DNA from: Escherichia phage MN04
Sequence record: MT129654.1
Length of the DNA stretch: 64,000 bases
Reading direction: 5' to 3' (one strand)
Both the position numbers and the translations under genes were made by a program. Within the stretch, counting starts at the first letter, position 1, and each line of letters opens with the position of its first letter. A model generated the notes under the pieces. The model did not search any database, was not told where the DNA came from, and was given only the letters and a program-made list of their open reading frames with translations. Of this stretch, positions 17,918 to 37,660 are shown in pieces.

Positions 17918-19297
17918 ATGGCTGATGTAATTGATACCCTTTTTAAACAATCCTTAGATGTTTACGATGATGCTTTTACTCGTCGTGACTTAAAAAGCAT
18001 TATCGACAATGAAGCGCTGGCTTATGCAATGTATACTGTCGAAAACCGCGCCATTCCAAATATGATTGATGGCTTTAAACCTGTACAACGTTTTGTAGTT
18101 GCTCGTTGTCTTGATATGGCTCGTGGTAATAAAGAAAAATTCCACAAACTAGCTTCTATTGCAGGTGGTGTAGCCGACCTTGGATATCACCACGGTGAAG
18201 GTTCTGCTCAAGAAGCAGGTGCTCTGATGGCTAACACATGGAACAACAACTTCCCACTGTTGGATGGCCAAGGCAACTTTGGTTCTCGATTAGTTCAAAA
18301 GGCTGCAGCCTCTCGTTATATTTTTGCACGAATTGGAACTAATTTCGCAAAGGTTTATAAGGATACAGAATATGCTCCGGTTCATGCGGATGTCGAACAT
18401 AAGCCACCAGCTTTTTATCTGCCTATTATTCCTACTGTTCTTCTTAATGGTATTTCCGGTATTGCGACTGGTTATGCAACTAATATTCTTCCTCATAGTT
18501 TTGATTCTGTTAAGAAAGCTGTATTGCAGGTTCTTCAAGAAAAACGCGTAACCAAGCCTAAGGTGGCTTATCCGGAATTCCGTGGCGATGTGGTTGAGAT
18601 TGAACCAGGTAGTTATGAACTACGAGGCACGTATAAGTTCACATCTCGAACCCAAATGCATATCACAGAAATCCCGTACAAATACGACCGTGAAACGTAC
18701 GTGGCCAAGGTACTGGACCCTTTAGAAGACAAAGGGTATATCACGTATGATGACGACTGTGACGAGAATGGTTTCGGCTTCAAGGTTAAGATTCGTAAAG
18801 AATATGAATTGCCTACTGAAGAAAATAAGAAGCATGAAAAAATCATGAAGGACTTCGGGTTAATCGAACGTCGTTCGCAAAACCTGACCGTCATTAATGA
18901 GAAAGGTAAACTTAAGGTTTACGAAGATGTAGTTGAACTGATTCGTGATTTCGTTGAGGTCCGTAAGACCTTTGTACAAAAACGTATTGATGGTAAAATC
19001 ATCGAAACCGAAGAAGCTTTCAAACTGGCATTGGCTAAAGCTACATTCATTAAAGATGTTATTGATGGTGTGGTGGTTATCCAAGGTAAGACCCGTAAAG
19101 TTTTAACCGAAGAATTGGCCAGCAATAAAGTCTACGGTGAATACGCTGATAAACTCGTAGCAATGAATATTTTCCATATCACGTCCGATGAAGCTAAGAA
19201 ACTGGCTTTGGAAGCCAAGGCTAAGAAAGAAGAGCACCAATACTGGAAAACCACTGATGTTGTAACTGAGTATGTTAAAGATTTGGAGGCTCTATGA
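17918..19297 (+). CDS. 52: DNA topoisomerase II medium subunit (GyrA-like breakage-reunion)
   Basis: 459 aa; N-terminus DLKSIIDNEALAYAMYTVENRAIPNMIDGFKPVQRFV is the gyrase A-type segment remembered from T4 gp52. Confidence 0.9.
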   Translation: MADVIDTLFKQSLDVYDDAFTRRDLKSIIDNEALAYAMYTVENRAIPNMIDGFKPVQRFVVARCLDMARGNKEKFHKLASIAGGVADLGYHHGEGSAQEAGALMANTWNNNFPLLDGQGNFGSRLVQKAAASRYIFARIGTNFAKVYKDTEYAPVHADVEHKPPAFYLPIIPTVLLNGISGIATGYATNILPHSFDSVKKAVLQVLQEKRVTKPKVAYPEFRGDVVEIEPGSYELRGTYKFTSRTQMHITEIPYKYDRETYVAKVLDPLEDKGYITYDDDCDENGFGFKVKIRKEYELPTEENKKHEKIMKDFGLIERRSQNLTVINEKGKLKVYEDVVELIRDFVEVRKTFVQKRIDGKIIETEEAFKLALAKATFIKDVIDGVVVIQGKTRKVLTEELASNKVYGEYADKLVAMNIFHITSDEAKKLALEAKAKKEEHQYWKTTDVVTEYVKDLEAL

Positions 19298-19398
19298 GCC
19301 TTGGAGTCGAGTTCTTGTTACTCTGTATCTTTGCTGTTATCCTAGGCCTGGCGACAGGCTTAGCTATAGGTTTAATAGCAGCCCACTTTAAAAAGTAA

Positions 19399-19420
19399 GG
19401 AACCTTCGGGTTCCTTTTTG
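19399..19420 (+). terminator. Rho-independent terminator
   Basis: ggaaccttcgggttcc hairpin followed by tttttg. Confidence 0.7.
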
Positions 19421-19438
19421 GGTTTAGTGCAAAAAAGT

Positions 19439-19467
19439 GTTTACATCTGCTTTAAACATGATACTAT
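19439..19467 (+). promoter_or_regulatory. T4-type early promoter with overlapping MotA-box-like TGCTTTA (copy 1 of a 56-nt cassette)
   Basis: GTTTAC 19439-19444, tgcttta 19448-19454, TACTAT 19462-19467. Confidence 0.6.
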
Positions 19468-19515
19468 AGACCTATCAAATAAATGAACTGAAACAAACAA
19501 CCCGGAGATACAAAA

Positions 19516-19743
19516 ATGAAATTTAAAATCGAAAACGAAATCGTTAAAGCTAAAAATGCTCTGACTGCTAACAAACTGGTTGTAGATGGTATTGAATATG
19601 ATATCTGTGGAGTTCGTGAAGAAAAACCCGGTGTTCTGACTTTCTTCACAATGATTTTTAAATTTAAAGGTGACACAGAATTCAAACAGTTTGATTTTGC
19701 CCCTGAAGACGAAATCGAAGTTCGTAATCTGAACATTAAGTAA
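19516..19743 (+). CDS. Hypothetical protein flanked by duplicated promoter cassettes
   Basis: 75-aa ORF with SD ggag upstream. Confidence 0.45.
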   Translation: MKFKIENEIVKAKNALTANKLVVDGIEYDICGVREEKPGVLTFFTMIFKFKGDTEFKQFDFAPEDEIEVRNLNIK

Positions 19744-19782
19744 GTACTTTATTAGAGCTCTTGAAAAAGAGCTCAAAATAAA

Positions 19783-19811
19783 GTTTACTTCTGCTTTAAA
19801 CATGATACTAT
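19783..19811 (+). promoter_or_regulatory. T4-type early/middle promoter of motA (copy 2 of the 56-nt cassette)
   Basis: GTTTAC 19783-19788, tgcttta 19792-19798, TACTAT 19806-19811; 55/56 nt identical to 19439-19494. Confidence 0.6.
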
Positions 19812-19848
19812 AGACCTATCAAATAAATGAACTGAAACGGAGATTAAA

Positions 19849-20484
19849 ATGTCTAAAATTACTTATATCATCAAAGCTTCTGAAGACGCCCTGAATGAAA
19901 AAACCGCTTCAATCTTAGTACATATCATCAAGCATAACTTCATCACTTCAGGCGAAGTCCGTGAAGCCCTGAGTGAACAATTTAGTGCAGCGGTAGTTAA
20001 CTCTAACATTGGTGTATTGATTAAGAAAGGATTCATCGAAAAATCTGGTGATGGACTGGTGGCTACGGGTGAAGCAATGGACCTAGTTCAAAAAGCTGCT
20101 GACCTGTTCGCTTCTGAAAATGCTCCAGAGATGTTGGAAAAACGTAAAACTCGCAGTTCACGTGGTGTTACTCCTGAAATGGTAGTATTGGCTGGTGAAG
20201 TTAAATCTTTGTTAGAAGACCGAATCGAGATTCGTGAAATCGCTGAAAACCGTAGCAATCTTGAAGTTCGATTCGCTAAACGTACCAACGGTATTCGTCA
20301 AATCGAAGTCCGTCGTGACGGAATGATGCGTATCTTCGGTTATAATATGACCGATAAAGAAAAACAAGTGTTTACTTCCTTGAATCTTGATGTTAAGATT
20401 AAGACTGGTGGTAAGAATACTTATATCGACTTCCAAAACGTATCATCTGAAGTTATCAAAACCGTAACCAACGCAATTATCTGA
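19849..20484 (+). CDS. motA: MotA middle-transcription activator
   Basis: 211 aa, same length as T4 MotA; N-terminus MSKITYIIKAS ... VNSNIGVLIKKG ... EKSGDGL matches T4 MotA as remembered. Confidence 0.9.
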   Translation: MSKITYIIKASEDALNEKTASILVHIIKHNFITSGEVREALSEQFSAAVVNSNIGVLIKKGFIEKSGDGLVATGEAMDLVQKAADLFASENAPEMLEKRKTRSSRGVTPEMVVLAGEVKSLLEDRIEIREIAENRSNLEVRFAKRTNGIRQIEVRRDGMMRIFGYNMTDKEKQVFTSLNLDVKIKTGGKNTYIDFQNVSSEVIKTVTNAII

Positions 20485-20498
20485 CTGAGGAAATTATT

Positions 20499-20828
20499 AT
20501 GAACAAGCTGAATATTGTTAATGAACTTCGTCGTTGTGCAGAACCTACTCAAGAAGGTTGGGATATTTGGTACCATGGCGCTTATCTCGGCACTATTGTT
20601 AAGATTAAAGCAGGTAAATACTTAATCATCCGTGGTGGTTCTGAAGCTTCTATGGGAATTCGTAAGAACTTTATGGCAGCCATCAGCACCTTTGTTCCAG
20701 CTGCTTATGAAGTCTATAAAGCCGACTACAAAGAATACCAGGAATCACAACCGGTTATTCGTTCAATTGGTGTTAATAAAGCTCAACAGAAAACTTTATG
20801 GCAACGTGTTAAAGGATGGTTCAAATGA
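20499..20828 (+). CDS. Hypothetical protein
   Basis: 109-aa ORF preceded by ctgaggaaattattatg. Confidence 0.4.
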   Translation: MNKLNIVNELRRCAEPTQEGWDIWYHGAYLGTIVKIKAGKYLIIRGGSEASMGIRKNFMAAISTFVPAAYEVYKADYKEYQESQPVIRSIGVNKAQQKTLWQRVKGWFK

Positions 20829-36551: not shown

Positions 36552-36580
36552 GTTTACAATGCCTTTAAACATGATACTAT
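36552..36580 (+). promoter_or_regulatory. T4-type early promoter
   Basis: GTTTAC 36552-36557, TACTAT 36575-36580. Confidence 0.6.
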
Positions 36581-37631: not shown

Positions 37632-37660
37632 GTTTACAAGGTCTATAGGCATGATACTAT
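37632..37660 (+). promoter_or_regulatory. T4-type early promoter
   Basis: GTTTAC 37632-37637, TACTAT 37655-37660, flanked by palindrome aggtctatag / ctatagacct. Confidence 0.6.

Follow-up and report, generated by a model that had tools for sequence, protein, structure and literature searches.

A probable PeSL-type gene cassette in the variable gene 52-motA interval of Escherichia phage MN04

The interval between gene 52 and motA in Escherichia phage MN04 (record MT129654.1; the window analysed here is a stretch of 64,000 nucleotides (nt)) contains an open reading frame (ORF) of 75 amino acids (aa) bracketed by two nearly identical promoter-leader repeats. This arrangement is very probably a cassette of the promoter-early-stem-loop (PeSL) type, seated in a variable slot and exchanged by recombination within a duplicated block of promoter, leader and Shine-Dalgarno (SD) sequence. 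PeSL elements comprise a stem-loop, an AT-rich region, a sigma-70 early promoter, an SD sequence and an ATG codon, and are found upstream of small ORFans (Arbiol 2010, PMC2839356; Comeau 2014, PMC4122927). The window represents a JS10-like Dhakavirus (99.4% identity to phage JS10 across 19250-19900), in which gene 52 is followed by a 34-aa ORF, a hairpin with a T-run, the first repeat copy, the 75-aa ORF, a second hairpin, the second repeat copy and motA.

The duplicated promoter-leader repeat and its cargo gene

The two 56-nt copies of the repeat (19439-19494 and 19783-19838) lie where a preliminary description of this DNA had placed them and differ only at their seventh base (A/T). Ungapped extension lengthens the repeat to 65 nt at 94% identity (Table 1), and no match of this type occurred in 100 dinucleotide shuffles. 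The preliminary description regarded the copies as promoter cassettes. Each copy does carry an early promoter on the + strand, but the repeat also takes in a leader of about 27 nt; the repeated unit is the motA early promoter plus its leader, more than the promoter alone. Both promoters have a 16-nt spacer ending in TGa and A-rich sequence upstream of the -35 element (CAAAAAAGTG and CAAAATAAAG). They fit the consensus published for T-even PeSL promoters, TTTACW-N17-TAYWAT (PMC4122927), with spacers of N16-18 allowed. Judged by their -35, TGn and -10 motifs together with the A-rich upstream sequence, both would belong to the class of T4 early promoters, which combine UP, -35, TGn and -10 elements (Hinton 2010, PMC2988021). 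The left copy is predicted to drive the 75-aa ORF and the right copy motA; the right-copy element precedes motA in all examined Dhakavirus alleles except the type that carries a 73-aa ORF.

The window contains 16 matches to TTTACW-N16-18-TAYWAT, all of them on the + strand and spread over 941-61834, compared with 0.85 +/- 0.94 in dinucleotide shuffles. Many of these sites have a hairpin across the spacer and -10 element (for example, near 37633, 53323, 6787, 17005 and 47207) or an upstream terminator (a strong one with a CUUCGG loop precedes the match at 36553). Taken as a whole, the window therefore looks PeSL-rich. Within this set the two copies stand apart: they are 91% identical over 67 nt, whereas the median among the 16 promoters is 46% and the next-best pair reaches 72%. 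Thus, the pair represents a true duplication, more than a resemblance among promoters of one family. The same figures make a moron-type illegitimate insertion very improbable, that is, the chance landing of a self-contained gene with its own promoter, the likeness of the flanks reflecting the early-promoter consensus. It is true that the cargo has a promoter of its own and a hairpin downstream, and that the early promoters of the window share an extended consensus; however, the identity of the two copies far exceeds the median among them and runs about 27 nt into the leader, past any promoter consensus.

Each copy is preceded by a stem-loop, as had been claimed. The left hairpin (-11.4 kcal/mol) is terminator-like in a terminator scan and is kept in all Dhakavirus alleles. 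The right hairpin, GAGCTCTT-GAAA-AAGAGCTC, reaches a predicted stability of -13.0 kcal/mol when its outer A:U pairs are counted (z = -4.25), which none of 200 shuffles equalled. Its stem is 98% paired across seven alleles and shows one compensatory change, from A:U to G:C, in Mosigvirus. Both structures are candidates for activity as RNA elements, judged from sequence, and no Rfam family was found in 19200-19950 at E <= 1. Just before the right hairpin, an indel of 1 nt separates the window from JS10 (L001); it lies in the T-run within the cargo gene's 3' untranslated region (19747-19753; GTACTTTATT versus GTACTTTTATT).

The 75-aa ORF between the repeats is a real gene, in agreement with the preliminary description. 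Substitutions relative to its homologues fall mostly at the third codon position (in one example, position 1 has 18, position 2 has 13 and position 3 has 37), the pattern expected of a + strand gene. An antisense ORF of 120 aa (19441-19803) was dismissed as a gene because the codon-position pattern fits the + frame. The 75-aa protein has no match in Pfam, PADLOC or PDB sequence searches, and a large protein search returned only six clusters, all unnamed or hypothetical. An AlphaFold2 (AF2) model (mean confidence score, pLDDT, 88.5) predicts a small beta-barrel with one short helix. Fold searches with this model gave uncharacterised small phage proteins as the best matches (BFVD, TM score 0.82, E = 4e-4); beta domains of the eIF5A/EF-P/HEX-1 type were only weak matches (E >= 0.016), from which no function is drawn.

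Homologues of the 75-aa protein with 58-71% identity occur in four further genera and at no fewer than three loci. The Moonvirus homologue lies in the same gene 52-motA interval together with three further small ORFs, the Jiaodavirus homologue adjoins a tRNA cluster, and those of Gelderlandvirus and Karamvirus adjoin a nucleotidyltransferase gene. In all four genera an early promoter and a GGAG leader are located 5' of the homologue and another early promoter 5-9 nt past its stop codon, the latter with a hairpin across its -10 element in three of these genera. Promoter and leader are near-identical between the Moonvirus and the Karamvirus copy despite their different loci; promoter, leader and ORF therefore move as a unit. 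In Citrobacter phage NM4.3, a Moonvirus, the slot is expanded: four small + strand ORFs, including the 75-aa homologue, precede motA (L012 1472-2754).

Variation of the gene 52-motA interval within and between genera

Searches anchored on the 3' end of gene 52 and on the empty junction of phage MX01 covered about 37 distinct Dhakavirus genomes, among which at least five states of the gene 52-motA interval can be told apart. The site is empty, with one promoter, in about 19 genomes (MX01, QL01, WG01, NC-G, vB_EcoM_005 and others). It holds a 71-aa ORF (phrog_6200) in about seven (JS98, CLB_P2, dhabil, VR5, Bp7 and others), an unrelated 73-aa ORF in three (AnYang, IME341 and 04086) and the 75-aa ORF (phrog_10955) in seven (JS10, CUA3, UP19, IME281, EcWhh-1, Ec2-ASingh and Esco_phi_B-01). 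In phage IME08 alone, the 71-aa ORF and the 73-aa ORF occur in tandem, and the promoter is present in three copies. Thus, the proposal that the 75-aa ORF is a module inserted ahead of motA is borne out by genomes with a different cargo, two cargos or none at the same site. The comparison across T-even genomes that the preliminary description had suggested gave the opposite of universal presence with non-repeated flanks: the ORF is found in about 7 of the approximately 37 Dhakavirus genomes and in about 130 of the 486 Tequatrovirus-type records spanning the site.

The window and JS98 are 96-100% identical in both flanks and approximately 40-50% identical across the cargo. The 71-aa and 75-aa cassettes have the GAGCTC hairpin and the right promoter copy in common. 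In the 73-aa cassette, the -10 element of the motA-proximal promoter is spanned by a different hairpin, AGGTCTAT-12 nt-ATAGACCT, and the -35 region of that promoter also differs; the ORF of this cassette, which begins MKTLNINSFFYN, was seen in IME08 (L015 130-960) and AnYang (L016 330-640). Mosigvirus JS09 has the layout promoter, 71-aa homologue, hairpin, promoter and motA, and the compensatory stem change is found here. The Mosigvirus 71-aa homologue ends differently from the Dhakavirus 71-aa ORF. In JS98 (L005 ~2300-2324), the 3' end of the 71-aa ORF (...ATTAAAGACCTATCAATCTAA) holds the 11-mer AGACCTATCAA, which is also found after the promoter -10 element and may be a relic of an older junction.

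These states bear on a rival view, in which an in situ duplication of the motA promoter served to raise or re-time the expression of motA, the intervening ORF being incidental or long-resident and the repeats irrelevant to mobility. Since a T-run is missing from the right hairpin, transcription begun at the left promoter may continue into motA, which would then have two promoters, and IME08 has as many as three promoter copies. However, the ORF is missing in most relatives, unrelated cargos occupy the same junctions and homologues of the cargo reside at other loci, while roughly half of the Dhakavirus genomes manage on one promoter. Moreover, between genera the cargo shows 99% identity, against 60-75% in the flanks. 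In situ duplication is therefore an improbable explanation.

The junctions favour exchange through the repeats. All of them, for the three cargos as well as for the deletions, fall inside the repeated promoter/leader/SD block, and empty sites are of two types. QL01, WG01 and NC-G retain the motA-type leader (ATAAATGGTTATC-GGAG), and in MX01 and Mosigvirus G2285 the cargo-type leader is fused to the motA ATG, which is the product expected of a crossover in the repeated GGAG...ATG block. When the two copies of the window are collapsed in silico, the resulting sequence is identical at 323 of 330 positions to the natural single-copy allele of vB_EcoM_005, which has the JS10-type leader. Thus, both the occupied and the single-repeat forms exist in nature. 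A pattern scan of IMG/VR for the terminator followed by a single promoter with the JS10-type leader found exactly one contig. Both the confinement of the junctions to the repeat block and the existence of a precise single-copy allele argue further against a chance insertion.

The cassette has also moved between genera. The segment shared with Tequatrovirus (Table 1) includes the 75-aa ORF, which differs by 2 nt over 228 nt between the window and phage ACG-C40 and is absent from T4 and PST. The left promoter of ACG-C40 is the T4 allele (GGTTTACAACCAAAGCATACTGTGGTACTATACAACTATCAA), switching to the cassette leader right after CTATCAA, and from its motA-proximal promoter through the leader to the motA ATG it carries the Dhakavirus allele. 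Since this motA-proximal allele is resident in all Dhakavirus and Mosigvirus genomes examined, empty ones included, the simplest reading is that a Dhakavirus-like phage was the donor and Tequatrovirus the recipient in a double crossover, with one exchange in the core of the promoter and the second in the SD sequence and the start of motA. A one-step integration of a mini-circle was dismissed for the Tequatrovirus allele because its right copy retains the donor leader through the SD sequence.

Free-standing homing endonucleases, which cause localised marker exclusion, abound in T-even genomes, and the exchanged tract is short and sharply bounded, as might follow from a homing endonuclease or other dedicated element of the T4 seg or mob type that spreads by double-strand-break repair with co-conversion of its flanks. 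Such an element is nevertheless the least credible of the explanations considered and a highly improbable one. No GIY-YIG or HNH endonuclease domain, nor any other domain known to Pfam or PADLOC, was found in the three cargo ORFs (75, 71 and 73 aa). The predicted fold of the 75-aa protein is a small beta-barrel that matches uncharacterised phage proteins, and no endonuclease gene is adjacent, the neighbours being gene 52, the 34-aa ORF, motA and arn.4.

Proposed exchange and its relation to known systems

Exchange of PeSL-type cassettes through the duplicated block would proceed as follows. The mobile unit would consist of a stem-loop, a strong sigma-70 early promoter with its leader of about 27 nt, an SD sequence and a small ORF. 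An incoming cargo would bring, or insert behind, a copy of the motA promoter-leader and would thereby become bracketed by direct repeats of 41-65 nt. The homologous-recombination machinery of the phage itself, on which the process presumably depends, would need only short homology, and the repeats and the repeated GGAG...ATG block would serve as crossover points, either inside a single genome or between genomes that co-infect. The results would be insertion of a cargo, its precise deletion, its replacement by another cargo, or tandem stacking. In every state motA would retain its proximal promoter, so that the essential regulator would never be uncoupled, and the left copy would make the cargo an immediate-early gene. 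A circular intermediate may be involved: the predicted mini-circle would measure 344 bp, the spacing of the repeats, and its reciprocal product, the collapsed genome, is the only one of the two seen in nature.

Several points weigh against this account. A single mini-circle crossover cannot yield the Tequatrovirus allele, which needs a double crossover or later gene conversion. The right hairpin is not a canonical intrinsic terminator, as it has no T-run, and its role as a terminator is only putative; nor is covariation in its stem significant (7 alleles; 125 of 500 shuffles). For 13 genomes the allelic state was read from the sequence and for about 24 from BLAST span lengths only, and the phage database holds duplicate or closely related records, which makes the frequencies rough.

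The claimed PeSL-like architecture agrees with the published system, and every PeSL property that can be read from sequence is present. Both copies have an early promoter with an AT-rich upstream region (with a 16-nt spacer and TGn), and a stable stem-loop lies next to each, upstream of or overlapping the promoter. GGAG and a start codon (ATG at 19516 and 19849) are found at the 3' end of each element, and the 16 consensus promoters in 64 kb correspond to the many copies per genome, which published PeSLs show with a preference for plastic regions and for positions ahead of small ORFs without known function. The elements occupy the insertion, deletion and replacement junctions of close relatives, as seen in the five states, the two deletion junction types, the collapsed allele and the cross-genus exchange. 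Tandem elements flanking a single ORF, as here, are likewise described for PeSLs. Published PeSLs are further characterised by promoter and terminator or attenuator activity and by extrachromosomal mini-circles that arise through recombination between tandem elements, properties that are predicted for the present locus. The gene 52-motA locus, Dhakavirus and Mosigvirus lie outside the described cases, and PST, a T-even phage of the 2014 analysis, has an empty T4-type site. In addition, the repeat stands out for its unusual length and near-perfect identity, and the leader of an essential regulator forms part of it. In contrast to the GGGG/CCCC stems of RB49 and phi1, the right hairpin is rich in AT, has a GAAA loop and lacks a T-run, and the mini-circle is here a prediction. 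The two PeSL papers (PMC2839356; PMC4122927, supplements excluded) make no mention of motA, JS98 or JS10 at this locus. A literature search found no paper describing a gene 52-motA cassette locus, and the sole paper mentioning motA.1 lists only the motA.1 terminator.

Other systems are similar in part. The T-even internal-protein locus (Repoila et al. 1994, as outlined in PMC2839356) appears from that outline to carry alternative small early genes in a fixed slot, bounded by repeated elements based on T4 early promoters with weaker AT-rich stem-loops. It is a different locus with a different class of cargo, the cargo here apparently not being an encapsidated internal protein. Lambdoid morons (Hendrix et al. 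2000, as outlined in PMC2839356) are, according to the same source, likewise single accessory genes with their own promoter and downstream hairpin between two conserved genes. However, they are described there as having no conserved linker repeats and as probably arising by illegitimate recombination, whereas the regulatory repeats here would be the crossover sites. Accumulation of cassettes at one site and their tandem stacking (as in IME08) recall integrons, an analogy also made by Arbiol et al. (PMC2839356). In contrast to integrons, there is no integrase and no attC or attI site, each cassette has its own promoter with no common Pc, and exchange presumably occurs by general homologous recombination. 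No integrase or recombinase domain was found in the cargo ORFs, and the repeats are promoters, unlike the imperfect palindromes of attC.

Neighbouring genes, the motA leader and wider meaning

The annotated neighbours of the cassette are gp52, MotA and Arn.4. Gene 52 is 96-100% identical to that of JS98 and 60-80% identical to that of ACG-C40, and the motA product matches Pfam MotA_activ (E = 2e-38) and MotCF (E = 2e-13). The start of the 34-aa ORF, which the preliminary description did not mention, overlaps the stop codon of gene 52 (ATGA); the ORF has the position of T4 motA.1 (49 aa) and is annotated in CLB_P2 and MX01 and unannotated in the JS10 record. In Bp7, motA is annotated as two coding sequences (L010 2426-2635 and 2635-3060), which points to either a frameshift or an error in sequencing. 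Short patches with 90-96% identity to ACG-C40 occur at 18400-18499, 20500-20599 and 20750-20799, in surrounding genes (gene 52 and an arn.4-like ORF) that are otherwise 60-75% identical; these patches may represent additional small mosaic tracts, or else coding segments under strong conservation.

Table 1. Positions of features in and around the gene 52-motA interval of the window
Feature	Position	Strand	Remarks
Gene 52 (topoisomerase II medium subunit)	17918-19297	+	ORF; gp52 annotation in JS10 and JS98; conserved left anchor of the slot
34-aa hydrophobic (membrane) ORF	19294-19398	+	Between gene 52 and the first hairpin; phrog_16377, E = 2e-21
Left hairpin	19397-19421	+	Putative intrinsic terminator of the gene 52 unit and left PeSL stem-loop; 8-bp stem 19397-19416, CUUCGG loop, T-run
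Left repeat copy	19430-19494	+	Predicted early promoter: -35 TTTACA 19440-19445, TG 19459-19460, -10 TACTAT 19462-19467; leader of ~27 nt
Horizontally exchanged segment	~19477-19858	+	98-100% identical to ACG-C40-type Tequatrovirus; flanks 60-75%
Cargo-specific leader	19495-19515	+	GGAG Shine-Dalgarno 19504-19507, read from sequence; travels with the ORF into Tequatrovirus
Cargo ORF, 75 aa	19516-19743	+	ATG start; phrog_10955, PHROGs E = 1e-48; family of unknown function
Right hairpin	19755-19774	+	Putative right PeSL stem-loop; 8-bp stem; outer A:U pairs extend to 19749-19781
Right repeat copy	19774-19838	+	Predicted early promoter: -35 TTTACT 19784-19789, TG 19803-19804, -10 TACTAT 19806-19811; leader; motA-proximal
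motA Shine-Dalgarno and motA gene	19839-20484	+	GGAG 19839-19842; gene 19849-20484; conserved right anchor

The motA leader and promoter carry two further sequence features. The RegB endoribonuclease has the strong-site consensus GGAGRAYARAA, with GGAG in an unstructured intergenic position (Uzan and Miller 2010, PMC3014915). The motA leader GGAGATTAAAA agrees with this consensus at 10 of 11 positions and the cargo leader GGAGATACAAA at 8 of 11, and both are predicted to be unstructured. The promoter spacer of each copy contains TGCTTTA, which corresponds to the MotA-box consensus (19448-19454 and 19792-19798); TGCTT is found in the spacer of none of the 14 other early-type promoters of the window. 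In the spacer of the T4 motA promoter the motif occurs as its reverse complement, AAAGCA, and the Mosigvirus form is TGCTTCA. In middle promoters the MotA box lies about 12 nt from the -10 element. A MotA-activated middle promoter was dismissed here because TGCTTTA is only 7 nt from the -10 element. The box of middle promoters is centred at -30 (PMC2988021). The spacer TGCTTTA might instead be an autoregulatory operator for MotA.

A broader view is that the gene 52-motA interval is a subfamily-wide platform for cassette acquisition, integron-like in that the motA promoter-leader would be a recurrent attachment sequence at which cargos stack and captured genes come under motA-type control, which could include autoregulation via TGCTTTA. 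This generalisation is rather unlikely. If true, cassette traffic would repeatedly rewire the promoter of the master activator of middle genes across genera.

No new kind of mechanism is involved: the locus is a fresh and well-documented case of the PeSL cassettes already described, and it would not surprise a T4 specialist. It does provide an unusually complete natural series at one locus, comprising an empty site, three cargos, a tandem pair, two types of deletion junction and a cross-genus transfer. Alleles from before and after are both available as isolated phages, which makes the system experimentally tractable. The 75-, 71- and 73-aa ORFs would be small immediate-early genes, and as they are gained and lost among close relatives they are reasonable candidates for functions in host takeover or counter-defence. 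A notable side effect is the replacement of the motA promoter across genera: in roughly a quarter of the Tequatrovirus records motA lies under a Dhakavirus-type promoter. Thus, an essential regulator can have its promoter and leader replaced through cassette traffic.

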